Of a stretch of 64,000 nucleotides of DNA, positions 7,956-23,523 are shown one piece after another (position 1 is the first letter of the stretch; each line of letters starts with the position of its first letter). A model generated the notes under the pieces. That model saw nothing but the letters and a program-made list of their open reading frames with translations, was not told the DNA's origin and did not search any database. A program made the translations under genes and the position numbers. Source of the stretch: a virus; IMG/VR virus record IMGVR_UViG_3300033076_000783, one strand, 5' to 3'.

Positions 7956-8346
7956 AGTAAATGTTATTAAAGTTTTACAAAGGAAATATACACATAATAG
8001 TCGAATTTCCCAAAAAATTCTGGAAAATTTTTTTTTCAGTTTTACCCAAAAAAAGTCGATTTTTGGAAAAATTTCCGGAAAAATTTCAGTTAGAGCATTG
8101 TCCCCCCTATACAGACGTCAAAATACCCCCTATATAAGGGGGGATACGGGAAGGGGGGAGGGGGTACCCTACATAGGGGGTGGGCCGTTCTTTATTCGAT
8201 CTGTTGAGGAAGGTTCACCAAACGTTAATTGTTAAAGTTTAGTTAATAGGTAAAAAAAAATTAAAAAAAAGTATAAAAATATTTGGATTATATATTTCTA
8301 TACCCTATCTTTGATGTATTAAATAACACATAAACATTTAAACATT
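7956..8346. promoter_or_regulatory. Divergent intergenic control region with G-tract cluster and short direct repeats
   Basis: Divergent promoters on both strands. Repeated GGAAAAATTT units. CCCCCTatataAGGGGG hairpin. GGGGGG/GGGGG/GGGGG/GGG tracts. A half-copy of the palindrome core (GGGCCGTTCTTTATT). Confidence 0.5.
8283..8314 (+). promoter_or_regulatory. Bacteroidetes-type promoter (TTTG -33 / TAnnTTTG -7)
   Basis: TTTGG ...20 nt... TATCTTTG upstream of the 8347 gene. Confidence 0.5.
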
Positions 8347-8880
8347 ATGAAAAATTCAGTAAACACAAATGAAATCAACGTTACCAAAGATGAATTGTTA
8401 TCAATCCTTATGGAAGTTGAAAAACCAACCTTTACAAACATTATGTACAAAGTAAAGGTAAAGATGAACAAAACAAACAATCCTTATTTGGATAAGGTAT
8501 TCAAAACTACCAAAGGAAATTTCTTTATCGGTGGAAGTTATGAAGATATGGTAAACGTTCAAATTGACAAACAAGGTTTGGAAATTGAATTTGAAAGTCA
8601 AGAATGTTCAGTAGGGGAAAAAATTTCAAAGTGTGTTCAGTTCAACGAAAACCACAACAAACATTACTTACAATATTTTACCTACAAAAATTCATATCAT
8701 TCAACCGAGTATGAATTTGAGGGAAGAAACATTGACCGAGAATTGTTTAAGTCCTTTGAGGTTAAGAAGTCCGAAAGTTCAAGACAACCACAAGACAACA
8801 AAGTAAAACCACAATCTTTGACAATAGACAATATTAAGAAGATTAGTTTATTCGGTAAAAGATATAACGTAGTAGGGTAA
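8347..8880 (+). CDS. hypothetical protein
   Basis: 177-aa ORF after a consensus promoter. Confidence 0.5.
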   Translation: MKNSVNTNEINVTKDELLSILMEVEKPTFTNIMYKVKVKMNKTNNPYLDKVFKTTKGNFFIGGSYEDMVNVQIDKQGLEIEFESQECSVGEKISKCVQFNENHNKHYLQYFTYKNSYHSTEYEFEGRNIDRELFKSFEVKKSESSRQPQDNKVKPQSLTIDNIKKISLFGKRYNVVG

Positions 8881-8959
8881 TCCTACTACATTTTCCCCCA
8901 CGAAAGTCCCTTACGAAAGTGAGGGATTTTTTTTTGACCACAGACCATCTCCGTCCCGT

Positions 8960-9074
8960 CTACAATAGTGAACGGCTCCGATAGACCATCAGGACGAGAA
9001 ATCCTTCAGGGAATAATGAACGGCCCCGAAGATTGTAATACACCATCGAGCCATTCTTATTTCCCACGGGGACG
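8960..9074. repeat. Complex imperfect palindrome (intergenic repeat family, copy A)
   Basis: AATAGTGAACGGCTCC, GAATAATGAACGGCCCC and CGAGCCATTCTTATTT half-sites plus complementary outer arms CCGTCCCGTC / CACGGGGACG. Confidence 0.7.
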
Positions 9075-9191
9075 TAACCTTACATCTACTTCATTTACGT
9101 TAAGAAAATTTTAACAAAATAAATTTGGTCATATAAAAGAATTAGTATTATATTTGTCATACAAATTCACTAACAAATAAACACAAGTATT

Positions 9192-9380
9192 ATGAAAGAG
9201 TTAATCAATCTTTATTTAGACATTTTCAATTCAATGGAAACATTTGAAAAAGTATTAGTAATCTTTTGGTCATTATGTGTGGTCATGTTTTATGTGTCAT
9301 TCCTTATGATTATAAAGAACGTAATACACGACACTATCAAATCATTCTTTGTAAAGAAACCTCAACCCCAACGATTTTAG
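9192..9380 (+). CDS. small membrane protein
   Basis: 62 aa with a central hydrophobic helix. Confidence 0.4.
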   Translation: MKELINLYLDIFNSMETFEKVLVIFWSLCVVMFYVSFLMIIKNVIHDTIKSFFVKKPQPQRF

Positions 9381-9471
9381 TTGTCATCAGTCGGTTAATA
9401 TGGGTAAAGTCCTCATCAGTAATGGTGGGGATTTTTTTTTGGTAAGAAGAAATGGTTTCAGCCCCTGATCC

Positions 9472-9585
9472 AGAAAATAATGAAGGGCTCGGAGCCGTTC
9501 TTTATTACCATCCGGATCAGCTTGGACCGGGTTCATTTATGAGCCCTTCATTATTACCATCCGGATCAGCTTGGACGAGGGTGGA
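9472..9585. repeat. Intergenic palindrome family, compound copy B with 21-bp direct repeat
   Basis: AATAATGAAGGGCTCGGAGCCGTTCTTTATT and TTCATTTATGAGCCCTTCATTATT, each followed by ACCATCCGGATCAGCTTGGAC. Confidence 0.75.
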
Positions 9586-9614
9586 AAAAATATCCTAAAA
9601 AAAATCAAAATATA

Positions 9615-9646
9615 TTTGGTGGAATAGAAAAGTTGTTATATCTTTG
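9615..9646 (+). promoter_or_regulatory. Bacteroidetes-type promoter
   Basis: TTTGG ...20 nt... TATCTTTG; consensus shared with more than 12 other intergenic regions. Confidence 0.55.
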
Positions 9647-9668
9647 TATCAACAAAATAAATAATGAT

Positions 9669-9884
9669 ATGGAAAAATTAAGAGTTAAAAAATCAGATTT
9701 CAAATCCGACCTCTCATTTAACGAGTGGTGTGAGAAGTACAATTTGGGTAAGGGTTATGTACAACCTACTCAATATTTTCAAGGACACAAAAATTGGTCA
9801 ATGGAACCTATCGGAGTGGCGAAATACATTCACGAAAGTCCTATTGAAAGATTATTTAGAGTTATAAAAAGAAAATTAAAATAA
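9669..9884 (+). CDS. hypothetical protein
   Basis: ORF-track start at 9633 lies in the promoter; first plausible ATG (MEKLRVKK) is at 9669. Confidence 0.45.
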   Translation: MEKLRVKKSDFKSDLSFNEWCEKYNLGKGYVQPTQYFQGHKNWSMEPIGVAKYIHESPIERLFRVIKRKLK

Positions 9885-9888
9885 TATT

Positions 9889-10194
9889 ATGTTAGTAAAA
9901 TTAACTTATTACGGAACAGACCGACCTACATTAGTCAATATGGACAATGTGGAAAGTATCTACCAAGTGTTTGACAAGTCGTCGAAAAGATATTCGACCA
10001 AGATATGTTTTAGTGGTAACGAAAGTTTCATCAATGTTGAGGAAGATTTACAGACGATATTAAGATTGGCTCAAGAAGTCAGTATGGGTAAGTTTCAATC
10101 ACACGATTGGGAAACACCAAGTATAGAAGAAAGAATGGCGGCGTCATTCCAACGTAAATACGATACTCAATTTAATGATACATTTAATTATTAA
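9889..10194 (+). CDS. hypothetical protein
   Basis: 101-aa ORF. Confidence 0.45.
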   Translation: MLVKLTYYGTDRPTLVNMDNVESIYQVFDKSSKRYSTKICFSGNESFINVEEDLQTILRLAQEVSMGKFQSHDWETPSIEERMAASFQRKYDTQFNDTFNY

Positions 10195-10384
10195 TCCTAT
10201 GAAAGAGATGTTAAGTGTTTTTAAAGAACAATGGAACGAAGACCCAAAAGAAATGATTGGTGGGATATTGTTTATGATTGGTTGGTGTGGTATGACATAT
10301 TTCCTACTTTGGTTTGGTGCGACGTTTTGTTACGATATGTGATGTGTTTTGTGTTTATAGTTTAATTGTTAGTTCCCCTAAGAC

Positions 10385-10410
10385 CCTATCAGAAATGGTA
10401 GGGTTTTTTG
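10385..10410 (+). terminator. Intrinsic terminator
   Basis: CCCTATCagaaatGGTAGGG+TTTTTT; near-identical to the terminator at 19870. Confidence 0.6.
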
Positions 10411-10458
10411 TTTTTCGGATAGACCACCCATCGACGGTTATGGACCGGGTAATAATGA

Positions 10459-10630
10459 ACGGCCCATTCGAACTCATTACTAATCAATCTGATGTGAATC
10501 CATTTATAACATTAGTGTGAATTCTATCTGCACAGATCCTGTAAATTAATGAACGGCTCGTATTACACAGAGGTGGGATTGTATTACATGGCCGTACATT
10601 ATTCATTCCCGTCGGAACAGGTGAGATGGT
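10459..10630. repeat. Intergenic palindrome family, copies C1/C2
   Basis: ATAATGAACGGCCCATTCGAACTCATTAC and AATTAATGAACGGCTC-gtattacacagaggtgggattgtattaca-TGGCCGTACATTATTC. Confidence 0.7.
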
Positions 10631-10722
10631 CAAGAAAAATAAATTAAAAAAAAGTTGTAAAAAAGTTTGGTGGGTAAAATATAATGATTATATTTGTATG
10701 AACAATTTAAACAAATACTATT

Positions 10723-11037
10723 ATGTCACAGAAACAAATTTTAATCGAGAACATTAGTGAAACTAATGATGTAAAGAAATTGGAAATGACAATTTCAATG
10801 TTAATGTTTGGTTGGGTTATGGACGACCACAACACAAAAGAGTACGAGGAACTTATTGAAGTATCCGTAAATCGTTTGAACATTCTTATGTTGATACGAG
10901 GAGAAGAACACCCATTACAAAATGTGGATTTGGTTAGAGATAGAGAGAGAATCGAAATGAGTGTGAAGTTGTCAATGATTAAAAGTGTTATGGATATGGA
11001 AAAAATGAATCCATTACACCAAATGAGTATGAATTAA
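10723..11037 (+). CDS. hypothetical protein
   Basis: 104-aa ORF preceded by a TTTGG...TATATTTG promoter-like sequence. Confidence 0.45.
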   Translation: MSQKQILIENISETNDVKKLEMTISMLMFGWVMDDHNTKEYEELIEVSVNRLNILMLIRGEEHPLQNVDLVRDRERIEMSVKLSMIKSVMDMEKMNPLHQMSMN

Positions 11038-11063
11038 ATCTTTTTCATTGTCGTTGTTAAAAG

Positions 11064-11092
11064 GGTAGGACTTTGTTCTACCTTTTTTTTTG
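11064..11092 (+). terminator. Intrinsic terminator
   Basis: GGTAGgactttgttCTACC+TTTTTTTTT. Confidence 0.6.
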
Positions 11093-11109
11093 TCCAAGAA
11101 TTCTTTTCG

Positions 11110-11175
11110 CGCAGATCATGTGAATTAATGAACGGCCCAAGCCATACATTATTCATCAGGGACCAGCTGGATCAC
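11110..11175. repeat. Intergenic palindrome family, copy D
   Basis: GCGCAGATCATGTGAATTAATGAACGGCCCAAGCCATACATTATTCAT with outer arm CTGGATCAC. Confidence 0.7.
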
Positions 11176-11295
11176 GGTGAAAATTCATTAGGAAAACTTT
11201 AACAAAAAAAGTTGACAAAATATTTGGTAAACTAATATTATTGTTATATCTTTACATCAACAAAACAATTATTAATCCTTTAAACATTTAAAAAA

Positions 11296-11736
11296 ATGGG
11301 AACAAGAAGCACTTATCGTTTTATCGAACAATACAAAGACGATAGAAACGACACAAACGAAAATCATTTAGCCTTAGTTTACTTTCAGTACGATGGTTAC
11401 CCAAGTGGACACCCAAGTGAAACCGCGGAATGGTTAGTATCTGGTGAAGTAGTTAATGGGTTCGGAATTGGAGTTGAAAAATTACAATTCAACGGAGCGG
11501 GTTGTTTAGTCGCTCAATTCATATCCAAGTACAAAAACGGAGTAGGCGGAGTTTATGTAAATTCATTAGATAGTAGGGGTAAATGTTGGGAAGACTATCT
11601 TTATGATGTTATTGTGAAGTTGGATAATTCGATTGAGTATGTGTGTTATGAAAACGACGAAACACCTCGTGAAATTTTCAGAGGAAGTCCAAAAGATTTT
11701 CTAACGAAATATAAAAGAGAAGTAGAAGTAGAATAG
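11296..11736 (+). CDS. hypothetical protein
   Basis: 146-aa ORF after a promoter (TTTGG...TATCTTTAC). Confidence 0.5.
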   Translation: MGTRSTYRFIEQYKDDRNDTNENHLALVYFQYDGYPSGHPSETAEWLVSGEVVNGFGIGVEKLQFNGAGCLVAQFISKYKNGVGGVYVNSLDSRGKCWEDYLYDVIVKLDNSIEYVCYENDETPREIFRGSPKDFLTKYKREVEVE

Positions 11737-11759
11737 GTTTAGTGTTATTAATAAGTAAA

Positions 11760-11787
11760 AGGGTGGGATTTTATCTCACCTTTTTTT
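11760..11787 (+). terminator. Intrinsic terminator
   Basis: GGGTGGGATtttATCTCACC+TTTTTTT. Confidence 0.55.
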
Positions 11788-11825
11788 ATGCGCCAAAGTT
11801 TGCGCCGTCATGCGCGCTGCGCACT

Positions 11826-11874
11826 GTGAATAATGAATGGCTTGTATTACACCAACGAGCCGTACATTATTTTA
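11826..11874. repeat. Intergenic palindrome family, copy E (GTATTAC loop insert)
   Basis: GTGAATAATGAATGGCTtgtattacaccaacGAGCCGTACATTATTTT. Confidence 0.7.
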
Positions 11875-11989
11875 CAGACTCAGCCGGGTGAATTCCTCAA
11901 GAAAAAATAATTTAAAAAAAAATGAAAATAAATTTGTTTTATAATAAAATAGTATTATCTTTATACCAACAAAACAAAACAAATACATT

Positions 11990-12211
11990 ATGGTAACAAC
12001 AACAATTAACCCTATCAAAACAAAAAGATTGTTTTGGGGAAAGAAAGGTAAAGAAGTAAGTGGTTGGTTAAAATTAGAAGACGGAACCAAAACACATTTC
12101 TTCATTGACAAAGATGGTACTTGGGAACAATGGGGTAACACTCGTGATAATCTTACGAAGTCGATTCCGTTCCTACACGACCTAACAACATTTCTCCTTT
12201 GTGGAGAGTAG
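11990..12211 (+). CDS. hypothetical protein
   Basis: 73-aa ORF. Confidence 0.4.
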   Translation: MVTTTINPIKTKRLFWGKKGKEVSGWLKLEDGTKTHFFIDKDGTWEQWGNTRDNLTKSIPFLHDLTTFLLCGE

Positions 12212-12287
12212 ACACTCATTTTAATAAGGGTTTAAAGATAATCCCTCGGACTTTTGGTTCGGGGGATTTTTGTTTACTGAAGAAACT

Positions 12288-12348
12288 GTTTTCGCGCAGA
12301 TCATGTGAATTATGAATGGCTCGAGCCGTTCTTTATTTTCTGGATCTG
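12288..12348. repeat. Intergenic palindrome family, copy F (near-perfect)
   Basis: CGCGCAGATCATGTGAATTATGAATGGCTCGAGCCGTTCTTTATTTTCTGGATCTGCACCG; core and outer arms are both self-complementary. Confidence 0.8.
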
Positions 12349-12450
12349 CACCGTCGAAGGTGAAGAAAAATATTTTAAAAAAAACAAAGAAAAATTTTGG
12401 ATATACAGATATAATTGTTATCTTTGTATAAACATTAAAACAAACACATT

Positions 12451-13035
12451 ATGAAAAGGTATGAATTAAAAGTCGTTCAAGACGAAAGTCCGATGAATCC
12501 AAGAACAGAATGGGATAACGTAACAACAATGTTATGTTTCCATAGACGTTATGATTTGGGTGACGAAACACATTATTGTTCCAACAATTATGATGGATGG
12601 GATGAATTCGAAGAACAAATTCGAAAAGACTACAATGTACTAATGTTGAAACCATTATATCTATACGACCATAGTGGGATAACTATTAGTACGAGTCCAT
12701 TTGGTTGTATATGGGATAGTGGTCAAATTGGTTTTATTTTGATAGAAGAAAAACAGTGGGAGAAAATGATGGGCCCCGACATGGATAGAAGTGAAGAAAG
12801 ATTAGAACGTATTATCAATGGAGAGGTTGAGGATTATGATAAGTATTTGAGAGGTGACGTTTGGGGTTTTAAGTTATACGAAGTTAATGAATGTAATTTA
12901 GGACATGAACACAAAGAATTGATTGAGAGTTGTTATGGGTTTTTTGATGAAGACGATTGTAGAAGTGAAGGTGAAAGTATGTTGGAGAGTTACGAAAAAG
13001 AAAGTTTAGTAAAGTCGTCCACATCGGTATTGTAA
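12451..13035 (+). CDS. hypothetical acidic protein
   Basis: 194 aa; conserved-looking YLYDHSGITISTSPFGC block; function unknown. Confidence 0.5.
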   Translation: MKRYELKVVQDESPMNPRTEWDNVTTMLCFHRRYDLGDETHYCSNNYDGWDEFEEQIRKDYNVLMLKPLYLYDHSGITISTSPFGCIWDSGQIGFILIEEKQWEKMMGPDMDRSEERLERIINGEVEDYDKYLRGDVWGFKLYEVNECNLGHEHKELIESCYGFFDEDDCRSEGESMLESYEKESLVKSSTSVL

Positions 13036-13065
13036 ATTTGTTTTGTGTTCATAGTGATAAAATTC

Positions 13066-13092
13066 CCTCGAAGAAATTCGGGGGTTTTTTAT
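13066..13092 (+). terminator. Intrinsic terminator
   Basis: CCCTCGAAgaaaTTCGGGGG+TTTTTT. Confidence 0.6.
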
Positions 13093-13099
13093 TTCCCAC

Positions 13100-13185
13100 A
13101 GATTTCCTGCCGAAGGTTCAGGGTGAATTATGAATGGCTCGAGCCGTACATTATTCATGATGGGATCGGCAGAATCAGGATGGAA
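13100..13185. repeat. Intergenic palindrome family, copy G
   Basis: CCACAGATTTCCTGCCGAAGG...GTGAATTATGAATGGCTCGAGCCGTACATTATTCATG...GGGATCGGCAGAA. Confidence 0.75.
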
Positions 13186-13279
13186 AATCTGTAACAAAAT
13201 TTTAACAAAAAAAAATTAAATAATATTTGGTGGAACGAATTTATTGTTATATATTTGTATTACACAAACAAACACTATT

Positions 13280-13474
13280 ATGGATTACAAAATTTTAACC
13301 TCGTCAAGTCCCGAAACACTTACATCGAATGTAAGATTATTAATCAATGAAGGGTGGAAACCTATCGGTGGTCATTCAGTAGTTGAAGTTCACCGACAAA
13401 ATAGATTTCGTGGTGACCAATTAGTTGATACTATTGTTAAAGTCGAATATTCACAAACCTTAATCAAAGATTAG
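13280..13474 (+). CDS. hypothetical protein
   Basis: Track ORF starts inside the promoter; first plausible ATG (MDYKIL) is at 13280. Confidence 0.4.
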   Translation: MDYKILTSSSPETLTSNVRLLINEGWKPIGGHSVVEVHRQNRFRGDQLVDTIVKVEYSQTLIKD

Positions 13475-13476
13475 TT

Positions 13477-13692
13477 ATGTTTATCGAATTAACCTCAATC
13501 GCATCGGTGGTGAATGATGAAACACTAATGATATATGCGAAATATCAAAATGGTGGTTTTGATGTGGATAGTGGTATTCATATCAAATTAATATCTAACA
13601 ACCTTTATAATTGTTTAAAGGGTATGGATAAATTTATTGTAGACGAATTATTGTATCAAACTAAAATTTATAATTATGAAAAAGGTATCTAA
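13477..13692 (+). CDS. hypothetical protein
   Basis: 71-aa ORF. Confidence 0.4.
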   Translation: MFIELTSIASVVNDETLMIYAKYQNGGFDVDSGIHIKLISNNLYNCLKGMDKFIVDELLYQTKIYNYEKGI

Positions 13693-13894
13693 AAAATGGA
13701 GAATATTATCCCCCGATGGATTTACTATTGAGTTCGGAGTTCCACACTATTCAAGTAGTGAAAAAATGTGGGAGAGTTTTGAAAAATGGAAAGAACGTTA
13801 TAGACAACAAGGTTATTATAGTTCAACCGAATATGGTAGAATACCTTTGGACGAATTGTTTGATTATTGTTTCGTATCATGTTTAGATAATTAA
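13676..13894 (+). CDS. hypothetical protein
   Basis: 72-aa ORF overlapping the upstream gene by 17 nt. Confidence 0.4.
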   Translation: MKKVSKKWRILSPDGFTIEFGVPHYSSSEKMWESFEKWKERYRQQGYYSSTEYGRIPLDELFDYCFVSCLDN

Positions 13895-13906
13895 AACCAT
13901 AAAACT

Positions 13907-14260
13907 ATGTTAAAAGTTAAAGACCACAACAAGTATCGTTTATTCGATTACGAAAATGAAATGTCATACACCTACCAATTGGGTGATGTACTATACAAGA
14001 AATATGAGGGTGACCAAAGTCCCGAGATTGGAGTTGTAATACAGACATTCTCTGATGGTGATTTCCGTACAGATATGTGGGGTATGAGTAGTGAGTCTGA
14101 AGTTCGAGTGGCGACACTGACAGATGTGAAAAATCACCGGCCCGATTTGTTGGGTGATTTAATCATTCAAGTTGGTGTGTACCATATGGAAAATGATAAT
14201 GGTGAAGTCGTGTATGACATAGAGGAGATGACTGATGAGTTTGTTAGATTGACCATTTAA
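13907..14260 (+). CDS. hypothetical protein
   Basis: 117-aa ORF. Confidence 0.45.
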   Translation: MLKVKDHNKYRLFDYENEMSYTYQLGDVLYKKYEGDQSPEIGVVIQTFSDGDFRTDMWGMSSESEVRVATLTDVKNHRPDLLGDLIIQVGVYHMENDNGEVVYDIEEMTDEFVRLTI

Positions 14261-14347
14261 AAATTTTATAACTAAACACTTGATAATACGAGTAATATAT
14301 TTTATATTTTATTAGTGTTCATAAGTGTTTAGTGTTTGTTTAAAGTT

Positions 14348-14377
14348 GGGAACGAGAGTGTCGTTCCCTTCTTTTTT
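14348..14377 (+). terminator. Intrinsic terminator
   Basis: GGGAACGAgagtgTCGTTCCC+TTCTTTTTT. Confidence 0.6.
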
Positions 14378-14410
14378 GTCCGAACCTTCCATGTGCATCT
14401 GAGATTATTC

Positions 14411-14458
14411 AAATTATGAACGGCTCAAAGCCATACATTATTCATTCCCGTCGGAACA
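14411..14458. repeat. Intergenic palindrome family, copy H
   Basis: CAAATTATGAACGGCTCAAAGCCATACATTATTCATTCCCGTCGGAAC; the 3' flank is identical to copy C2. Confidence 0.7.
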
Positions 14459-15228: not shown

Positions 15229-15975
15229 ATGAACAAGATAATGTCAGGTAAAAAAGTCGGAGAAATTTTTGAAACAAAAGATTATTCAATCTTCAAGTTT
15301 CGTAATGACAATCGTGTGATTGATAACAATCACGTTAAGAAACTTTCTCGTAAGATGAAAGAGAAAGGTTGGTTATCAACTTCAATCGTTACCTTAAATG
15401 GTAGTGGTGATGTAATTGACGGACAACACAGAGTTAAAGCCGCTATGGCGGTAGGTTGTCCAATTCGTTACAAAGTTACTCGTGGAGCGGGTACTGATGA
15501 AATGACCGAAATGAATACTTTACAAAAAAATTGGAGTCCATTTGACCACCTACATAAATTTGTGGAGAGAGGAAATTCAAACTACATTACATTTGATAAA
15601 TTCGTTAAGGATTATCCAATGTTTAAGTACACTGAAATTTCAATGTTGTTGAATAACAATATGACCACAATTAAGAGAGATAGTTTTGAAAGTGGTAACT
15701 ATGTTGTTAAGAATGACAAAGTAGGTCGTGAGTGGGCGAATTACATATTAGAGTTGAAACCATACTTTGAGAAGTATTACAATAAGTCAATCTTCGTGAG
15801 AGGTTTCATCAAAGTAATATCTTCTAAACCCGAGTTCGTGTTTGAGGAGTTCTTACACAAAGTGAAGTTAAGACCAAATATGTTAGTACCTTGTGGAACG
15901 GTGGAACAATATGTTCAAATGATTGAGGACATTTACAACTATCGTAGAGGTGAAAAGGTTAATTTGAGATTTTAG
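15229..15975 (+). CDS. DGQHR-domain protein (DndB-like, ParB/Srx nuclease superfamily)
   Basis: VIDGQHRVKAAMAVG motif; 248 aa. Confidence 0.5.
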   Translation: MNKIMSGKKVGEIFETKDYSIFKFRNDNRVIDNNHVKKLSRKMKEKGWLSTSIVTLNGSGDVIDGQHRVKAAMAVGCPIRYKVTRGAGTDEMTEMNTLQKNWSPFDHLHKFVERGNSNYITFDKFVKDYPMFKYTEISMLLNNNMTTIKRDSFESGNYVVKNDKVGREWANYILELKPYFEKYYNKSIFVRGFIKVISSKPEFVFEEFLHKVKLRPNMLVPCGTVEQYVQMIEDIYNYRRGEKVNLRF

Positions 15976-16003
15976 GATTTTGGTTGGTTAGTAAATAAGA
16001 ATC

Positions 16004-16031
16004 GGGGGACAGAAATGTTCCCCTTTTTTTA
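16004..16031 (+). terminator. Intrinsic terminator
   Basis: GGGGGACAgaaaTGTTCCCC+TTTTTTT. Confidence 0.6.
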
Positions 16032-16068
16032 TGTATTACAAGAAGGTTCGAGCTCAGGAAGGTATCCG

Positions 16069-16093
16069 AATAATGAATGGCCCACGGTTTTGT
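16069..16093. repeat. Intergenic palindrome family, half-copy J
   Basis: GAATAATGAATGGCCCACGG only. Confidence 0.5.
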
Positions 16094-16222
16094 TTAGTAT
16101 TATATTGGTTTAATCATGTTTTGTTTAAACTTTCATAAAAAAGATTGCACAAATTAAATATTTTTATTGTTTATTCGATTTTTTGTATTACTTTTGCAGT
16201 CGAAATCAAACTACACAATTTT

Positions 16223-16462
16223 ATGGAAACTGATAGTAGAAACAAGGCGGATAATATCAACCTTGTGGATAAGTCAAAAAAAGTGTTTGTTAGAATCCAA
16301 TTAAGTAACAATCGTAAGTATTGGGAAAAATGGATATCTAAAGACAAAAAAGATTGGGAGTTGGACGGCAAGCTGAAGAGTCTCGAAGATGTGTTAAAGT
16401 CACAACAAGATGTTATAGATAGTAACTATAATAATCTCTTCAACTTATTAGTTAGGAAATAG
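16223..16462 (+). CDS. hypothetical protein
   Basis: Track ORF starts at 16145. A TACTTTTG -7-like box at about 16190 favours the METDSRNK start at 16223. Confidence 0.35.
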   Translation: METDSRNKADNINLVDKSKKVFVRIQLSNNRKYWEKWISKDKKDWELDGKLKSLEDVLKSQQDVIDSNYNNLFNLLVRK

Positions 16463-16525
16463 TTCCATTTTAATATTTGTTTTGTTAGAGTAAGGGTGTT
16501 AGTAAGTTTTGTTCAATCCCCCAAA

Positions 16526-16552
16526 CCCCACGAGAAATTGTGGGGTTTTTTT
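16526..16552 (+). terminator. Intrinsic terminator
   Basis: CCCCACgagaaattGTGGGG+TTTTTTT. Confidence 0.6.
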
Positions 16553-16565
16553 ATGTCCACAGATT

Positions 16566-16640
16566 TTCCTGCAGATCATGCTGCACATTATGAATGGCTC
16601 GAGGCCGTTCATTATTCCCTGGCAGCTGCAGATCAGATCA
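16566..16640. repeat. Intergenic palindrome family, copy K (perfect 30-bp core)
   Basis: CATTATGAATGGCTCGAGGCCGTTCATTATT flanked by CTGCAGATCA on both sides. Confidence 0.8.
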
Positions 16641-16732
16641 CGGAGAAAAAATAATTTATATTTCTTGAAAATAATTTTGGATTATATAAAATATTGTTTT
16701 ATCTTTGTAGTGTAACAAAACAATAATACATT

Positions 16733-17578
16733 ATGGAAAGAATTAAAGAAGTACTGAACACAACTGGTTTAAACTGGAATGTTCGCAGTGAAGAATTAAC
16801 TACTGAAAGTGGAATCATTTTAAGTGGTTACAAAGCAATTGTTCGTGATGACACTAATACTGCATTATCAGTAATGAGTGACACGTATGAACCGTTTCAA
16901 AATTATGACTTGGTCGAGTTGCTAGACAAGGTGTCAAATATGACAGGCTTGGAAGTAACAAGAGGTGGGACATTTAAAGATGGTGCTCGCGTGTATGTAC
17001 AATTAAAATCGGATAACCTTAAGTTGGGTGACGATAGAATCGAGGGATATTTGACTGGCATCAATTCATTCGATGGTTCAACGAGTTTAGCATTCGGACC
17101 TAGTAACATTACAATCAGTTGTCAAAATTCATTCTTCTCAGCATTTAGAGAAATGAAAACAAAAATTCGTCACACCAAAAACATGATGATTAAAGTGGAC
17201 GAAGTATGTAGAAGTTTAGAGAATGCATTAGTGGAAGAAAAGAAAATGTTTGATAGTATCGTTCAATTAAGTGAAATCCGTTATGATGATGTAATGAAGG
17301 ATAATGTTATTCGTAAGTTATTCGACATTAAGAAAGATGTGGATTTAAAAGATGTTGATTCTATTCATACGACTACACGAAATAGACTTAGTAGATTTTA
17401 TGTTGACCTTAACGGAGAGTTGCAACAAAAGGGAGATAATATGTGGGGTTTATTTAGTGGAGTAACAAAGTACACCACACATTCATTGAGTAAAGGCAAT
17501 AGTCTTGAAACTAAAATGATGGGGACTTATGGCAAGAGAGAAAGAGAAATCTTTAGTGATATGTTAGAGTTAGTGTAA
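16733..17578 (+). CDS. DUF932 / phage-plasmid-like protein (TIGR03299-like)
   Basis: GLNWNV, RDDTNTALSVMSDTYEPFQN, GARVYVQLK and SFDGSTS blocks resemble the DUF932 family. Confidence 0.5.
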   Translation: MERIKEVLNTTGLNWNVRSEELTTESGIILSGYKAIVRDDTNTALSVMSDTYEPFQNYDLVELLDKVSNMTGLEVTRGGTFKDGARVYVQLKSDNLKLGDDRIEGYLTGINSFDGSTSLAFGPSNITISCQNSFFSAFREMKTKIRHTKNMMIKVDEVCRSLENALVEEKKMFDSIVQLSEIRYDDVMKDNVIRKLFDIKKDVDLKDVDSIHTTTRNRLSRFYVDLNGELQQKGDNMWGLFSGVTKYTTHSLSKGNSLETKMMGTYGKREREIFSDMLELV

Positions 17579-17667
17579 TACACCAATATCCATTAGAGTT
17601 AATAACCCCGATGTTTTTACATTGGGGTTTTTTAATGCTTGCAATTTTGGTTGCTGTTGCACATGCG

Positions 17668-17715
17668 CTGAATTATGAACGGCTCAACACGTATTACGAG
17701 CCACTCATTATCCTG
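17668..17715. repeat. Intergenic palindrome family, copy L (GTATTAC loop insert)
   Basis: CTGAATTATGAACGGCTCaacacgtattacGAGCCACTCATTATCCTG. Confidence 0.7.
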
Positions 17716-17773
17716 ACTGGTCCATGCCTGGATCAGGGCTAAAAAAATAATTTGAAAAAAAAGTAAATAAAAT

Positions 17774-17804
17774 TTGGTGGAATGATTTTTTTGTTATATC
17801 TTTG
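17774..17804 (+). promoter_or_regulatory. Bacteroidetes-type promoter
   Basis: TTTGGTGG ...19 nt... TATCTTTG. Confidence 0.55.
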
Positions 17805-17825
17805 TATCAACAAAAACAAATTAAT

Positions 17826-18083
17826 ATGATTAAGAAAACAAAACACACTCTGTTGTTAGGTGAGGGAGTTCACCAACACACACTCTATGGTAAGTTCGCA
17901 ATCGGTGATGGTACTGATTTTGCTGAACTTGAAGTTACGGAAGAAAGTCTATTAAAACACGAACACCCTAACGGAAATTTTGGTGAACACCAAACATTGA
18001 AGATTGAGAAGGGTGATTGGGTTATGGGTAGACAAGTTGAGTTCAACCCAATGGATAGTAAGATAACAAGAGTTTGGGACTAA
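17826..18083 (+). CDS. hypothetical protein
   Basis: Start adjusted to MIKKTKH, downstream of the promoter. Confidence 0.45.
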   Translation: MIKKTKHTLLLGEGVHQHTLYGKFAIGDGTDFAELEVTEESLLKHEHPNGNFGEHQTLKIEKGDWVMGRQVEFNPMDSKITRVWD

Positions 18084-18098
18084 TTAAAATTTAGCAAA

Positions 18099-18503
18099 AT
18101 GGCAAATCCTTTAATACATTCAAAATCGTCTGTTAAAAGATGGGGTGGTAAGGTAGAAGATTATCTACCAATACACGAACTGATTGATAGCCCAAAGGCT
18201 ACAATGAATAATAATTCTGCGAGATTGATGACACACAATACTTGGTTCGCATATACTATTGTACCGAAGATATTTGGTTACAACATTACTAATAGTGATG
18301 GTAAAAGTGTAGACACGACAGATATTGCGATGTTACATATTGCGGAAGATTTTAGAATGAAGTTCGTTCCAACACCACAGGATTACTTGAAACATTTACA
18401 AGTACAACCCTGGATGAATAATGGAGTAAAGGAACTTGATACCGAAGAAGGAAAACTTATTGTAAAACAATTAAACGAAAAATTACATTATGAGCAAGTC
18501 TAA
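18099..18503 (+). CDS. hypothetical protein
   Basis: 134-aa ORF. Confidence 0.45.
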   Translation: MANPLIHSKSSVKRWGGKVEDYLPIHELIDSPKATMNNNSARLMTHNTWFAYTIVPKIFGYNITNSDGKSVDTTDIAMLHIAEDFRMKFVPTPQDYLKHLQVQPWMNNGVKELDTEEGKLIVKQLNEKLHYEQV

Positions 18504-19146
18504 TATAATCCAATTATGGAAAGAAAATAATGTTAGAGATGTTGTATTAACATTCTCTGCGGGTGGCGACTCTATGGGTGATATGGAGTGGGCAATCTAT
18601 AACAAAGACAATGAAACTATTGATTGTCAAGAGTTGGAAGTTTATTTTGAGAGTGAGGTATTCAAAGAGGTAGAGTTCTACGAAGTATCTGATGGTCAGT
18701 ATATGGGTGAGTTTGGTGAGGTAACGATTACACTTGAAGAAGATGAGGACGAAGAAGATGGTGGTATTTTTGTGTATGACAAAGAATCTCAATCGGAGTA
18801 TGAAGAAAGTTTCTTTGAAACCGCCACTTTGGAATTGTCTGATACTGAACTTGTATTACTTGAAACCAAAATTGACAATATCAATGGTGGTGGTTGGGAT
18901 AATGAGGGTAACATAAATTACAAAGATGATTGTGTTATTACCGACGAGGAAGATGAAGTATTACAATCATTGGTAGAAAAGATTAAATCCGTTGCCGACA
19001 ATCACGAGTTTGAATTTGCTGAGGGTGATGAACAAGATGAAAGTCGTACTTATGATACTGGTGATAATGGTGAGGGTTGTGAGATTGATGGTAACGTATT
19101 ACAAATACAAGTTTCCGCAAGGTTCTATATTGTTAAATCCGAATAA
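18490..19146 (+). CDS. hypothetical highly acidic protein (DNA-mimic candidate)
   Basis: 218 aa with long D/E runs (EEDEDEEDGG, TDEEDEV, AEGDEQDESRTYDTGDNGEG). Confidence 0.5.
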   Translation: MSKSNIIQLWKENNVRDVVLTFSAGGDSMGDMEWAIYNKDNETIDCQELEVYFESEVFKEVEFYEVSDGQYMGEFGEVTITLEEDEDEEDGGIFVYDKESQSEYEESFFETATLELSDTELVLLETKIDNINGGGWDNEGNINYKDDCVITDEEDEVLQSLVEKIKSVADNHEFEFAEGDEQDESRTYDTGDNGEGCEIDGNVLQIQVSARFYIVKSE

Positions 19147-19156
19147 ATAAAAGAAA

Positions 19157-19846
19157 ATGAAAATCATAATCAATAATACTGAATTTGAATACAACATTGG
19201 TTGTAAAATTATTAAAGCGAGAGATGGTGAAGATTGTCCTAAATGGTTTAATCAACCAGATATTTGGGACGACATTGAACCGATAACTTTCAAAGACATC
19301 GCAACACAGATTACTAATCTTGAACAAAGAAGAATTGCGATAAACGCATTGGGTTTAGAAAACTTGGTGAAGGAAGTTAATCCAAAAATGATTGGCTCAG
19401 AAACAATCAGTAAGACCACTACGTTTGTTACACCAGAAGGTGAGTTGGTTACACATAACTTTAACGACACTTATAATTTATTTCAAGTTAGTGCCGAATC
19501 ACTTGGATTACAGAATAGTTGGAATAACACGAACTACTACTACATTCAATGTAAAGACACATCAACGGATAGAGAGTATTTGATTTGGGTAGATGCGTTT
19601 GAAGTGTATAGAACTAATGATGAAAATGTGAGATGGCGTTCAAGTTCTGAAAACTATGGTGAGAAGATAAATCCTATTCAGGCGATTGCTTGGACTTTCC
19701 AAACGACTATTGAGAAAGGTGGTATTGAAAAGATTGTGAGGCAAGGTGATTGTATTCTACTTAAAAAGAATAGTACCGCTAAAATCGGAAGTCAAAGACA
19801 CCTTACTGAAAAAGAGTATAGAGAGTTATTGGTATTAGAAAGTTAA
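19157..19846 (+). CDS. hypothetical protein
   Basis: 229-aa ORF. Confidence 0.5.
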   Translation: MKIIINNTEFEYNIGCKIIKARDGEDCPKWFNQPDIWDDIEPITFKDIATQITNLEQRRIAINALGLENLVKEVNPKMIGSETISKTTTFVTPEGELVTHNFNDTYNLFQVSAESLGLQNSWNNTNYYYIQCKDTSTDREYLIWVDAFEVYRTNDENVRWRSSSENYGEKINPIQAIAWTFQTTIEKGGIEKIVRQGDCILLKKNSTAKIGSQRHLTEKEYRELLVLES

Positions 19847-19869
19847 TAGTGTGTTTTGTTCCCCTAAAG

Positions 19870-19896
19870 CCCTATCAGAAATGATAGGGTTTTTTT
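19870..19896 (+). terminator. Intrinsic terminator
   Basis: CCCTATCagaaatGATAGGG+TTTTTTT. Confidence 0.6.
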
Positions 19897-19928
19897 ATGT
19901 CCACAGATTTCCCGTCTTCTAGAATCTG

Positions 19929-20075
19929 AAATATGAATGGCTCAGGCCGTTCATTTTCACACAGCATGATCTGCGCATGATCTGCTAAAAATTGCGCAGA
20001 TCTTCGCGCTGATCACAGGGACGATTATGACTGGCTCGAGGCCGTTCATTATGTTCCGACGCCGGCAGATCAGAT
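19929..20075. repeat. Intergenic palindrome family, compound copy M (two cores around a GATCTGCGCA...TGCGCAGATC palindrome)
   Basis: CTGAAATATGAATGGCTCAGGCCGTTCATTTTC, then CATGATCTGCGCATGATCTGC...GCGCAGATCTTCGCGCTGATCAC, then GATTATGACTGGCTCGAGGCCGTTCATTATG. Confidence 0.75.
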
Positions 20076-20168
20076 CATGAAAAAATATTTTAAAAAAAGT
20101 TTAAAAAATATTTGGTAAAATGATATAAGTGTTATATCTTTGTATCGAACAAATAAAATAACACTATT

Positions 20169-20927
20169 ATGATTTACACAAACAAAGCAACCGCAAAAAG
20201 ATTAACAGGTATTAACTACTTAGGATCCGTTAATCTAACGACCAAACATCAGAAGGCGTACAAGTACGATGAGTTAACCTACAGTTTGTACCTGGCACCT
20301 GCAAAAATGAGTGGCTACGAAGTTTGTCCCATGAGAACAAAAGAATGTACAAAGTTATGTTTGAATGAATCGGGGATGAACACCATGAACATGAACGGTG
20401 ACAAAATTAATCAGTCACGTATAAAGAAAACTAAATTGTTTTTCGAACACCGTGAATTCTTTGTCAATTGGTTAATCGATGAAATTTATTCAGCTAAACT
20501 TAAGGCAGAAAAATTAGGATACCAATTCAGTGTTCGTCTGAATAATACATCAGATATTCCCCCGACATTATTTAGTGTGAACTATAAAGGAGAACAAAGA
20601 AACATCCTTGAAATATTTCCAATGGTTCAATTCTACGATTACACAAAAGTGTATAACAGAATCGAGTTAACAAAGAAGTATAAAAACTACGATTTAACAT
20701 TTAGTTACAGTGGCGAGAACTTAGACCATTGCCACCAAGCATTGAATAACAATGTGAGAGTTGCCGTTGTATTCAAGAAACTACCTACAGAGTTTTGGGG
20801 TCGTAAAGTTATCGATGGTGATGCATATGACATGAGATACAAAGATGATAAGGATGTTATTGTAGGTTTGAAGTTCAAACGTGTGAGAAACAAATTAGCA
20901 AGTACAAGTAAGTTTGTAATACAGTAA
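20169..20927 (+). CDS. hypothetical protein
   Basis: 252-aa ORF after a TTTGG...TATCTTTG promoter. Confidence 0.5.
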   Translation: MIYTNKATAKRLTGINYLGSVNLTTKHQKAYKYDELTYSLYLAPAKMSGYEVCPMRTKECTKLCLNESGMNTMNMNGDKINQSRIKKTKLFFEHREFFVNWLIDEIYSAKLKAEKLGYQFSVRLNNTSDIPPTLFSVNYKGEQRNILEIFPMVQFYDYTKVYNRIELTKKYKNYDLTFSYSGENLDHCHQALNNNVRVAVVFKKLPTEFWGRKVIDGDAYDMRYKDDKDVIVGLKFKRVRNKLASTSKFVIQ

Positions 20928-20928
20928 G

Positions 20929-21000
20929 ATCACGGGACGGTCACGAATATGACCGGCTCATGTATTACGGGCCGGTCATTTTTAACAGTGTGATCAGATC
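20929..21000. repeat. Intergenic palindrome family, variant copy N (ATGACCGGC core)
   Basis: GATCACGGGACGGTCACGAATATGACCGGCTCatgtattacGGGCCGGTCATTTTTAACAGTGTGATC; a near-perfect 70-bp palindrome. Confidence 0.7.
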
Positions 21001-21079
21001 CCTGAAAAAAATAAAAAAACTTTGAGAAAAATTTGGTGGAAGAATATAAATGTTATATCTTTGTACTGAACAAAACTTA

Positions 21080-21103
21080 AAAACGGGGACAGGTAACTGA
21101 ACA
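21080..21103 (+). promoter_or_regulatory. Conserved 24-nt 5'-leader element AAAACGGGGACAGGTAACTGAACA (copy 2)
   Basis: Identical to 15195-15218. Confidence 0.5.
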
Positions 21104-21112
21104 CTAAACACT

Positions 21113-21661
21113 ATGGGACTAGATATGTATTTGTCTAAAAAGACGTATGTTAAACGTTGGTCACACCAACAAAAGAAAGACCAATTTACTGTAACAGTTA
21201 AAAGAGGGTCAAAGAAGTTTGATAAGATTAACCCTGAACGTGTGTCATACATTGTTGAGGAAGTTATGTATTGGAGAAAGGCGAATCAAATTCATGGTTG
21301 GTTCGTGGATAACACAGAGGAAATCTCGGATAACGTGAAGTACTATGTTACTCATGAAGATTTGGTTAACTTGGTTGACACGTGTAAGAAGGTGGTCGAA
21401 ATTCTAAACAACACTCCTACTAAAAAGAAACAGGTGTGTGTGGGTTGGAAGAATGGTGAGGAGTGGTACGAGGATATAGATGTGTATGACAACGTGGATG
21501 AGGTTATGAAAATACTTCCTCCTACACGTGGATGTTTCTTTGGTTCGGATGAAATTGATAAATGGTACAAGGAAGAACTTGAAAACACTATCGAAGTTCT
21601 AACAAAGGAACTTGAAATTAGTGACAAGTACGATGAGTACGAGTACTACGCCTCATGGTAA
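21113..21661 (+). CDS. hypothetical protein
   Basis: 182-aa ORF. Confidence 0.5.
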   Translation: MGLDMYLSKKTYVKRWSHQQKKDQFTVTVKRGSKKFDKINPERVSYIVEEVMYWRKANQIHGWFVDNTEEISDNVKYYVTHEDLVNLVDTCKKVVEILNNTPTKKKQVCVGWKNGEEWYEDIDVYDNVDEVMKILPPTRGCFFGSDEIDKWYKEELENTIEVLTKELEISDKYDEYEYYASW

Positions 21662-21666
21662 ATCAT

Positions 21667-21691
21667 ATGGGGGAGAAATCCCCCAATTTTT
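21667..21691 (+). terminator. Intrinsic terminator
   Basis: GGGGGAgaaaTCCCCC+AATTTTT. Confidence 0.55.
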
Positions 21692-21705
21692 AAACTTCAA
21701 AATTA

Positions 21706-22005
21706 ATGATCATGGAATCAAGATTATCACTGGCCTTTAAGGACCTTAGAAAACATGGATATTTCGCTCGTCAAAACTTTATGTGTTGTCAATCATGTGG
21801 ATGGGCGGCTGTACCCGAGGGTAAAGAAGAAAAAGTAGTATTCTTTCACAATCAGGATAACGAAGAAAGAAAGAGAGGGTTACCACTTTATTTAGCGTGG
21901 AGTGGAGATGGTGAGATTATTAAATCTGTCTTTGAACACCACGGAATAGATGTGGAGTGGAATGGTAGTGAGTCCACAAGAATACGAGTATCGAATTATG
22001 TATAA
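21706..22005 (+). CDS. hypothetical protein
   Basis: 99-aa ORF with Cys cluster (CCQSCGW). Confidence 0.4.
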   Translation: MIMESRLSLAFKDLRKHGYFARQNFMCCQSCGWAAVPEGKEEKVVFFHNQDNEERKRGLPLYLAWSGDGEIIKSVFEHHGIDVEWNGSESTRIRVSNYV

Positions 22006-22061
22006 AATAATAACAGGGATATCGTTTGGTAAAATGGTATCCTTGTTTTAACTTTGCAAAA

Positions 22062-23522: not shown

Positions 23523-23523
23523 T

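Follow-up and report, generated by a model that had tools for sequence, protein, structure and literature searches.

Candidate sigma-ABfr promoters embedded in composite linkers of a small-gene array from an uncultured jumbo-phage lineage

The 64,000-nt viral sequence analyzed here (IMG/VR record IMGVR_UViG_3300033076_000783; hereafter, the window) is phage-like, with 33% G+C, and carries at 8.3-25.1 kb a 17-kb array of 32 small genes, all on the plus strand, while long minus-strand operons occupy 26-64 kb. Most of the array proteins lack a Pfam or PHROG function. The long intergenic regions of the array (185-389 nt) share a common plan, a module of ~250 nt in which the stop codon is followed, in order, by an intrinsic terminator, a GC- and GATC-rich palindromic element, three A-tracts, a promoter, an A-rich leader devoid of a Shine-Dalgarno (SD) sequence, and the ATG of the next gene. 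We estimate at roughly three in four the probability that these modules embed promoters for the host RNA polymerase (RNAP) with the Bacteroidota primary sigma factor, sigma-ABfr, in composite linkers similar to the promoter-early stem-loop (PeSL) cassettes of T4-like phages (PMC2839356, PMC4122927).

Promoters were scanned on both strands with a pattern derived from the literature consensus alone, and not from the repeats of the window itself. The spacer of this promoter class reportedly ranges from 19 to 21 nt. The Bacteroidota sigma-ABfr consensus comprises a -33 TTTG and a -7 TAnnTTTG box, the latter refined to TAHHTTTG in Flavobacterium johnsoniae (PMC6847099). The pattern TTTG-N19-21-TAnnTTTG was found at 20 sites, compared to 2.5 ± 1.6 (maximum 8) in 200 dinucleotide-preserving shuffles, an eight-fold enrichment in which the observed count was reached by no shuffle, with spacers of 20 (n = 11), 19 (n = 5) and 21 nt (n = 4). 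A first-pass annotation of this sequence had already proposed the consensus at the correct spacing, which these counts bear out, and had placed a pair of literal strings in at least 14 intergenic regions. That number stands for the consensus but not for the strings: an 80-nt block is common to 12 sites (repeat family D1; nhmmer E <= 3e-7), the 14-mer AATATTTGGTGGAA has 8 copies in the array at up to 2 mismatches, and a 26-mer only 4 at up to 3 mismatches. The low G+C content of the genome, together with the chance-level frequency of TAnnTTTG by itself (98 vs. 97.6 in shuffles), could suggest fortuitous matches in an AT-rich genome or low-complexity repeats devoid of function. We consider this explanation exceedingly improbable: the bipartite enrichment was never matched in shuffles, the placement and orientation of the sites are strict, and the sites are kept in relatives down to 66% protein identity. 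A chance origin of the promoter sites is excluded.

Eighteen plus-strand sites, all intergenic and pointing in the same direction as the genes, lie at 8282-23025. The strict plus-strand sites (n = 13, at 8282-22056) are intergenic in 13 of 13 cases, and six relaxed sites (11223, 11933, 14501, 15003, 16167 and 22995) have one non-consensus box. Array sites are co-oriented with the next gene and located 3' of a terminator, and promoter density falls from ~1 per kb at 8.3-25.1 kb to ~1 per 6 kb at 26-64 kb. The plus-strand sites, with the spacer, the -7 box and the distance from that box to the ATG, and the minus-strand promoter-like sites are as follows.

8282-8313, plus strand: P1, TTTG-N20-TATCTTTG; 33 nt to ATG 8347
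9124-9156, plus strand: P2, TTTG-N21-TATATTTG; 35 nt to ATG 9192
9615-9646, plus strand: P3, N20, TATCTTTG; 22 nt to ATG 9669; first of a 3-gene unit
10666-10696, plus strand: P4, N19, TATATTTG; 26 nt to ATG 10723
11223-11254, plus strand: P5, N20, TATCTTTA, final base A; 41 nt to ATG 11296
11933-11963, plus strand: P6, N19, TATCTTTA; 26 nt to ATG 11990
12396-12426, plus strand: P7, N19, TATCTTTG; 24 nt to ATG 12451
13226-13257, plus strand: P8, N20, TATATTTG; 22 nt to ATG 13280; first of a 4-gene unit
14501-14532, plus strand: P9, N20, TAATTTTA; 4 nt to ATG 14537
15003-15034, plus strand: P10, N20, TAATATTG; orphan, no open reading frame (ORF) before the next promoter; kept in relative L013 at 13269
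15132-15163, plus strand: P11, N20, TATCTTTG; 65 nt to ATG 15229 (ParB-like gene); leader with GGGGACAGGT
16167-16196, plus strand: P12, weak, -33 only TTG, N19, TACTTTTG; 26 nt to ATG 16223
16676-16707, plus strand: P13, N20, TATCTTTG; 25 nt to ATG 16733 (DUF932 gene)
17773-17804, plus strand: P14, N20, TATCTTTG; 21 nt to ATG 17826; first of a 4-gene unit
20111-20142, plus strand: P15, N20, TATCTTTG; 26 nt to ATG 20169 (GP88-family gene)
21032-21063, plus strand: P16, N20, TATCTTTG; 49 nt to ATG 21113; leader with GGGGACAGGT
22025-22056, plus strand: P17, N20, TAACTTTG; 5 nt to ATG 22062
22995-23025, plus strand: P18, N19, TAAATTTA; 7 nt to ATG 23033
60020-60049, minus strand: promoter-like site; 27 nt to ATG 59992 (C5 methylase gene)
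49593-49623, minus strand: promoter-like site of TTTGGAATAT flavour; 22 nt to ATG 49570
38157-38189, minus strand: promoter-like site; 20 nt to ATG 38136 (FG-GAP protein)
35235-35265, minus strand: promoter-like site; 4 nt to ATG 35230
34068-34099, minus strand: promoter-like site; 20 nt to ATG 34047
27283-27314, minus strand: promoter-like site; 22 nt to ATG 27260

Twelve sites have 21-41 nt between the -7 box and the ATG, two have 49 and 65 nt, and three have 4-7 nt and could give rise to leaderless or near-leaderless mRNAs. At P9, either the mRNA would be leaderless or the true start would be ATG 14567. Each of the six minus-strand sites lies 4-27 nt 5' of the ATG of an ORF, ahead of minus-strand operons; the two examples given in the first-pass annotation (34099-34068 and 60049-60020) are real, and four more were found. 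The same annotation held that the ORF starts at 9633, 13244, 17802, 16145 and 22026 should be trimmed, and this trimming is correct: these TTG-start ORFs do begin within promoter blocks. In-frame ATGs at 9669, 13280, 17826, 16223 and 22062 yield clean ORFs, and strain-level metagenome gene calls contain products of matching length for the 9669, 13280, 17826 and 16223 starts.

Agreement with the sigma-ABfr consensus encompasses both boxes (TTTG/TANNTTTG, with G at -5), spacing, orientation and position (PMC6847099), and the spacing is also consistent with T-12...G-5 and a box centred near -33. The variable bases of the -7 box are TC, TA, CC, CA or AC, with G in none of the 33 sites from the window phage and two relatives, which fits the refined TAHHTTTG motif. 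Sites of sigma-70 type show no enrichment in the window (72 vs. 75 ± 9.8). Transcription is expected to start 4-5 nt 3' of the -7 box (PMC6847099), rather than at the distance of about 7 nt proposed in the first-pass annotation.

Relatives of the window phage preserve this signal. An exact-protein look-up returned strain-level contigs with 97.5-99.5% identity, and homologues of the DUF932 protein were identified on a 333,612 bp contig (L013, IMGVR_UViG_3300027804_000001; 86% protein identity) and on a 320,920 bp contig (L015; 66%), placing the window within an uncultured jumbo-phage lineage; a 180.8-kb contig (L002) is a further relative. Strict sites number 13 in L013 and 21 in L015 (each per ~20 kb), and 12 in L002. 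In orthologous promoters the boxes are kept and the spacers have diverged; one gene's weaker TA..TTTA box is shared by the window, L013 and L015, and the terminal A of the P6 -7 box recurs in the orthologous promoters of these two relatives. A more distant phage contig (L001, IMGVR_UViG_3300021225_000313, 53.6 kb), with three cassette proteins in common at 32-50% identity, has a more regular array at 1-8600, with 16 strict sites in 11.6 kb, the same core promoter and a terminator before each. The conserved motif upstream is a different one, (C/A)CTGCCAAAGAA, and takes the place of the palindromic element, whose core is lacking from L001. Host-type boxes at host spacing are therefore the common denominator across lineages, providing the strongest argument for the boxes as a functional promoter.

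Several promoter regions have features of their own. P17 overlaps a stem-loop at 22012-22047 (GGGATATC...GGTATCC) that holds the -33 TTTGG in its loop. This compact PeSL-like overlap of terminator and promoter is kept at 22012-22056 in the window, 16860-16919 in L013 and 17808-17881 in L015, with a stem that covaries among the three, and the P17 mRNA, with a -7 box ending 4-5 nt before the ATG, may be leaderless. The leader motif AAAACGGGGACAGGTAACTGAAC occurs at 15196-15218 (plus strand), ~30 nt 5' of the ATG of the ParB-like gene, and again at 21081-21103 (plus strand), before a 182-aa gene. The motif, also written AAAACGGGGACAGGTWWCTGAAC or GGGGACAGGTAACTGAAC, precedes only these two genes (248-aa ParB-like and 182-aa), which are the two with unusually long leaders (65 and 49 nt), and is present in all four phages (L013 13478 and 14979; L015 13396 and 17234; L002 9471 and 10972, minus strand). 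A role as an operator or in the control of translation is possible. Downstream of the orphan promoter P10 (15003-15100), 70-90 nt with short hairpins (AACTTTAAAGTT; CCCTT...AAGGG) follow in a layout kept at 13269-13400 in L013, and this region may be a small non-coding RNA gene. Lastly, a second promoter-like motif, TATTTATATA(g/a)AAA, without a -33 TTTG, has 8 copies vs. ~2 expected, including 51015, 41031, 34480, 7359, 4376 and 3130 on the minus strand and 63445 on the plus strand. Seven of the 8 copies lie 19-28 nt 5' of the ATG of an ORF, all in non-array genes, and the motif may mark a separate class of phage-specific promoters, late or middle. Promoters may thus fall into more than one temporal class, which fits, without proving it, a distinct timing of the array.

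Translation signals and protein similarity also bear on the host. No SD signal was detectable, with GGAG, GAGG or AGGA present at -20 to -4 in 4 of 104 genes, below the random background of 7.4%. The start regions of these genes show instead an A content of 64% at -3, 50% at -6 and ~61% at -10 to -13, and A-3, A-6, A-12 and A-13 promote SD-independent initiation in Flavobacterium johnsoniae (cf. PMC6847099). In tblastn against cultured-phage records, the ParB-like protein (15229-15975) matched Flavobacterium phages best (33.5% identity, E = 1e-34); a search of 50,697 cultured-phage records yielded no near DNA match. No tRNA genes were found in the window, and neither type IX secretion system (T9SS) nor other phylum-marker domains were found among the proteins scanned. 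Taken together, promoter type, SD-less A-rich translation signals and the ParB-like match suggest that the host is probably a member of the Bacteroidota.

Three further components precede the promoter boxes within the module. The first is a strong intrinsic terminator: 29 terminator-like sites were detected at 8-26 kb vs. 9.5 ± 4.1 expected, featuring GAAA- or AGAAAT-like loops and a run of 6-9 T. The sequences GTCCACAGATTT or GTCCAAGAA are often found directly 3' of the T-run. Interpretation of GTCCACAGATTT as a DnaA box was rejected, as only 4-5 copies exist and these are not enriched; a protein with a Bac_DnaA_C domain is encoded in the window. The following terminators delimit the units.

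8906-8936, plus strand: terminator after gene 8347-8880; 7-bp stem, GAAA loop, T9; read directly
9406-9444, plus strand: terminator after 9192-9380
10380-10416, plus strand: terminator after unit 9669-10342
11059-11096, plus strand: terminator after 10723-11037
11756-11790, plus strand: terminator after 11296-11736; repeat family D16
12240-12276, plus strand: terminator after 11990-12211
13065-13094, plus strand: terminator after 12451-13035
14348-14378, plus strand: terminator after unit 13280-14260
14861-14897, plus strand: terminator after 14537-14839
16004-16032, plus strand: terminator after 15229-15975
16523-16556, plus strand: terminator after 16223-16462
17604-17637, plus strand: terminator after 16733-17578
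19866-19901, plus strand: terminator after unit 17826-19846
21668-21695, plus strand: weak terminator or attenuator after 21113-21661, no promoter next
25167-25208, plus strand: array-closing terminator after 24951-25142

Counting promoters, terminators and short gene junctions yields ~19 units: 12-13 with one gene, 5-6 with 2-4 genes, and one promoter without an ORF. The multi-gene units include 9669-10342, 13280-14260 and 17826-19846 (3-4 genes), and 22062-22944 and 23033-24099 (2-3 genes). The array of one-gene transcription units initially envisaged hence applies to 12-13 of the ~18 protein-coding units, that is, about two-thirds of the units and ~40% of the genes, the others containing 2-4 genes. 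Ahead of each promoter, the three A-tracts are spaced ~11-12 nt, roughly one helical turn, and the promoter part itself reads TTTGG(T/A)(G/A)..., then ...TGTTATATCTTTGTA, followed by the A-rich leader (AACAAAAC...). Large non-coding regions border the array on both edges (7956-8346 and 25143-26260) and are kept in L013 (2199-2582 and 20044-20725). GC hairpins and repeats of GTATTAC, GTATGACA and TTATGACCGGCC are dense in the right flank (25143-26260), whereas runs of CCCCCCTATA / GGGGGGATACGGGA(A/G)GGGGGGAGGGGGTA and an isolated right half-core (GCCGTTCTTTATT plus GATC at 8184) are found in the left flank (7956-8346). The two regions may function as an origin, in packaging or as boundary elements.

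Between terminator and A-tracts lie 17 segments (1,822 nt in total, 45% G+C, within 8936-25400) that make up the GC- and GATC-rich palindromic element. Its directional core, RAWTATGAMYGGCY (also written ATTATGAACGGCTC), has 22 copies on the plus strand and none at 26-64 kb; an inverted partner, RGCCRTWCATTAT, follows 2-53 nt after the core in ~14 copies, and a GTATTACA box is often found 3' of the core. Seven copies consist of half-sites only, two of which are likewise half-sites in L013. The heptamer GTATTAC occurs 20 times on the plus and 9 times on the minus strand, always at or before 25.6 kb, and is absent from 26-64 kb, where base composition predicts ~8.7 copies. The segments are distributed as follows.

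8936-9090, plus strand: GC-rich module; core ATGAACGGC at 9016
9441-9584, plus strand: GC-rich module; double core (9480, 9543), repeated CCGGATCAGCTTGGAC
10412-10634, plus strand: GC-rich module; half-core 10455 and full core 10549/10591, two GTATTAC in loop
11092-11190, plus strand: GC-rich module; core 11128/11141
11788-11900, plus strand: GC-rich module; core 11833/11859, GTATTAC loop; DNA fold z = -3.4
12272-12365, plus strand: GC-rich module; core 12312/12325, both outer arms with GATC
13092-13195, plus strand: GC-rich module; core 13130/13143; z = -3.1
14378-14470, plus strand: GC-rich module; core 14416/14430
14893-14988, plus strand: GC-rich module; core 14932/14945
16030-16110, plus strand: GC-rich module; left half-core only (16073)
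16552-16650, plus strand: GC-rich module; core 16590/16604
17634-17742, plus strand: GC-rich module; core 17675/17700, GTATTAC loop
19897-20082, plus strand: GC-rich module; two cores (19933/19946, 20027/20041), six GATC
20928-21006, plus strand: GC-rich module directly 3' of the GP88 stop; core ATGACCGGC/GCCGGTCAT (compensatory variant), GTATTAC loop; z = -3.0
22945-22975, plus strand: left half-core only (22961), ~20 nt before the P18 -33 box; likewise in L013 at 17808-17895
24345-24420, plus strand: GC-rich segment with half-core (24384)
24841-24880, plus strand: half-core (24848), then GTATTAC; kept in L013 at 19711-19836

The core reads ATGAACGGC/GCCGTTCAT in the window and L013, ATGTTTGGC/GCCAAACAT in L015 and ATGACCGGC/GCCGGTCAT at 20949, and its change between lineages is compensatory (AAC:GTT to TTT:AAA). 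The middle pair of the core is formed in 95% of copies, vs. 44% with shuffled partners, and the single-strand DNA fold is better than that of shuffles in 13 of 14 copies (z -0.5 to -3.4). In gapped duplex energies, pairing was slightly stronger between cognate than between non-cognate outer arms, a weak effect (p = 0.027), and in-register outer-arm pairing shows no excess over control. GATC is 3.7-fold over-represented in the segments vs. 0.32-fold in the rest of the window, and 11 of the 12 GCGC sites of the window fall inside segments, suggesting that sites purged elsewhere are retained in the element and making it a concrete experimental target. Several short palindromes are strongly avoided window-wide (AGCT at 0.11, CTAG at 0.21, GCGC at 0.25 and GATC at 0.44 of expectation), and the window encodes two proteins of the C5-cytosine methylase family, one of them at 59033-59992.

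Rfam returned no match to the element at gathering thresholds, and only chance-level matches at E < 1. Scanning IMG/VR for the hairpin core produced 5 single matches, approximately the chance number, two of which (L002 and L006) are true relatives, and the element is present in intergenic regions of L013, L015 and L002. We rejected the core as a micro-ORF (ATG AAC GGC..., MNGS...), since beyond the first 3-4 residues the peptides agree neither in length nor in sequence, and the core reads MFG in L015, where the palindrome is kept. Located 3' of strong terminators and 5' of promoters, the element is probably little transcribed, which favours a role at the DNA level, putatively in recombination, in protein binding, as a cruciform or as a promoter read by a different polymerase. 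A more specific assignment, either as a dedicated crossover site for cassette exchange in jumbo phages (comparable to attC but with self-expressing cassettes) or as a second control site for a phage polymerase or regulator, appears rather doubtful, though compatible with the compensatory core changes, the confinement of the core and GTATTAC to the array and its flanks, the retained GATC and GCGC sites and the mosaic nature of the copies; the second-promoter or operator version, if true, would imply dual control for every cassette.

To compare cassette order, the 32 array proteins were mapped onto L013 and L015. The order differs among the three genomes with strand preserved: cassettes 7-8-9 of the window are arranged 9-8-7 in L013, the ParB-like and neighbouring 79-aa cassettes precede the DUF932 block in the window and follow it in L013, L013 lacks the GP88 cassette, and the order in L015 is scrambled further. 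Recombination between directly repeated linkers predicts precisely such strand-preserving shuffling, the behaviour shown by the PeSLs of T4-like phages, and we infer that recombination between modules reshuffled the cassettes. Among closely related pairs, L013 and L014 are identical (100%) in the array, and L015 and L016 differ by small indels, one of ~60 nt being intergenic; apparent differences in gene content within both pairs were dismissed as gene-calling artefacts, the sequences being identical or nearly so. Likewise, an apparent 3-gene deletion in L007, a metagenome scaffold of the same phage, was rejected as a scaffold gap of Ns at a repeat, hiding ~730 bp with three genes. The 100-N gaps of L007 (2817-2915 and 7580-7679) fall exactly at ATTATGAACGGC repeats, indicating that these repeats break short-read assemblies.

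In a reading that is compatible with the promoter interpretation, the modules might serve mainly as linkers for recombination or mobility, with promoter activity as just one of their roles. Gene conversion and the exchange of cassettes would then maintain the conservation beyond the sigma boxes, whether through homologous recombination of the PeSL kind or site-specifically at the palindromic core, in the manner of integron attC sites. Shuffled order with preserved orientation, the assembly breaks at ATTATGAACGGC repeats and the PeSL precedent, including mini-circles, are in line with this proposal, as is the lack of correlation between left- and right-arm similarity among copies of the GC-rich element (r = 0.13), which identifies the copies as mosaics joined at the core. 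Conversely, no recombinase was found beside the array, no close-relative pair among L013/L014 and L015/L016 displays a clean cassette insertion or deletion, and the lone strain-level breakpoint lies in a coding 3' end. On balance, we view linkage as the main function of the modules as possible but somewhat unlikely.

Under the favoured interpretation of host-read promoters in PeSL-like linkers, the host RNAP with its primary sigma factor would recognize the -33 TTTG(G), the 19-21 nt spacer and the -7 TA(no G)(no G)TTTG at the downstream end of each ~250-nt module and would initiate 4-5 nt 3' of the -7 box. The modules would insulate the 17-kb array into ~19 units, each with its own start and stop signals, and would supply the homology for moving, losing and gaining cassettes without disturbing their neighbours; early expression of the array is assumed. 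Several observations weigh against this interpretation. The Bacteroidetes host named in the first-pass annotation agrees with promoter type, SD-less leaders and the lack of sigma-70 enrichment, but GTDB genome scans (epimerase; DUF932 alignment) returned no relatives and named no host, and most other proteins have distant matches to phages of unrelated hosts. In phi14:2, another phage with a Bacteroidota-type host signal, it is the middle and late genes that are under host-RNAP promoters; phi14:2 is a Bacteroidota phage (bioRxiv 10.1101/2020.03.07.982082). The sole strain-level rearrangement, between L011 and the window, has its breakpoint within the 3' end of the GP88 gene and not in a module. 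Finally, conservation reaches well past both boxes (TTTGGTGGAATGA..., ...TGTTATATCTTTGTA, A-tracts), into positions unneeded for sigma contacts; this could stem from an extra factor or from concerted evolution by recombination.

Such conservation beyond the host boxes would also be expected if the sites served a phage-encoded apparatus (a virion or non-virion RNAP like those of phiKZ or AR9, a sigma factor or a co-activator) and their host likeness were partial or coincidental, a scenario consonant with the jumbo-phage source lineage (321-334 kb contigs) and with the phage-specific conserved AT-rich motif found 5' of early operons in RNAP-encoding jumbo phages (PMC7598289). The motifs read by virion RNAP (vRNAP) in jumbo phages, however, are single ~10 nt blocks near -10, whereas here two boxes at host spacing recur in three lineages, while the rest differs (L001). 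Moreover, the same bipartite signal lies 5' of operons on the other strand, and no RNAP or sigma family was present among the best 25 of 36 Pfam families for the 73 non-array proteins. We therefore deem a phage-encoded apparatus quite improbable, and retain host-read promoters as the preferred interpretation. A likeness of GTATTAC to a phiKZ early-promoter motif found no confirmation in published accounts (including PMC7598289) and was not used.

Elsewhere in the window, the left end (59-2620 and 4931-6237) carries genes of sugar-metabolism type, which encode a PfkB-family kinase, an NAD-dependent epimerase/dehydratase and a protein with a weak glycosyltransferase family 8 match, and proteins with SPFH/Band 7, NlpC/P60, S-adenosylmethionine decarboxylase and 4Fe-4S ferredoxin domains are also encoded.

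The promoter consensus itself is already known and is to be expected in a phage infecting Bacteroidota. The novelty resides in the PeSL-like architecture that an uncultured jumbo-phage lineage and one other phage build on a sigma-ABfr promoter, in the length and richness of the conserved linker, and in the directional palindromic element; the jumbo-phage lineage, the composite module and the palindromic element had been missed in the first-pass annotation. In practice, the promoter signal aids annotation by delimiting gene starts and transcription units and by providing a pointer to host phylum for a jumbo phage with no cultured relative, and the conserved promoter and terminator parts could be used as genetic tools for Flavobacteriia and Bacteroidia.

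Among known systems, the array resembles PeSLs in its combination of a terminator stem-loop with an AT-rich upstream tract and a host-sigma promoter, in its density within a hyperplastic region of small genes of unassigned function, and in the variation of cassette content and order among relatives; one array site (22012-22056) also matches the commonest PeSL subclass, in which the stem-loop lies between the promoter boxes. It departs from PeSLs in its sigma-ABfr rather than sigma-70 promoter, the lack of SD sequences, the ~250-nt rather than ~100-nt module, the additional GC/GATC-rich palindromic element, and terminators that are mostly separate upstream hairpins not overlapping the promoter. 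No T4-like hallmark was seen in the window, and the array, although working like PeSLs, is not filed in the T4 PeSL family, which is defined by sigma-70, SD and T4-like features. PeSL-type design is hence not limited to T4-like phages of Proteobacteria, but is also found, with another sigma type, in several uncultured phage lineages, supporting the notion that it provides large phages in general with a route to genome plasticity.

Morons of lambdoid phages, a system treated in PMC2839356, are single genes with their own promoter and terminator, found as isolated insertions with unrelated flanking signals. Array units are likewise autonomous promoter-gene-terminator combinations, but they are contiguous and their flanking signals form one repeated family. 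Integron cassettes, which PMC2839356 also takes up for comparison, are promoterless, dependent on Pc and an adjacent integrase, and their attC sites are conserved at the outer ends. Both systems are same-orientation arrays of small genes with imperfect, variable-length palindromes containing a conserved core and with order shuffled without inversion; the cassettes described here, in contrast, carry their own promoter and terminator, the conserved core is an inner one, and no integrase was found among the best 25 of 36 Pfam families, setting the array apart from integrons. Jumbo-phage vRNAP motifs share the jumbo-phage setting and a conserved motif 5' of many small early-region operons, but they are single AT-rich sequences of ~10 nt at -10 read by a virion RNAP, phage-encoded and multisubunit, whereas the array signal is bipartite and host-type. 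With sigma-ABfr promoters, the array sites share both boxes, the 19-21 nt spacing, the absence of G at variable positions and A/T-rich flanks, and they also precede SD-less, A-rich leaders with A at -3. Compared to the genome-wide set of F. johnsoniae (PMC6847099), the -33 box, weak in that set, is far more conserved in the array (TTTGG, often TTTGGTGGAATGA), and the array sites are further distinguished by three phased A-tracts upstream and a conserved initial transcribed region (GTAnnnAACAAAAC).

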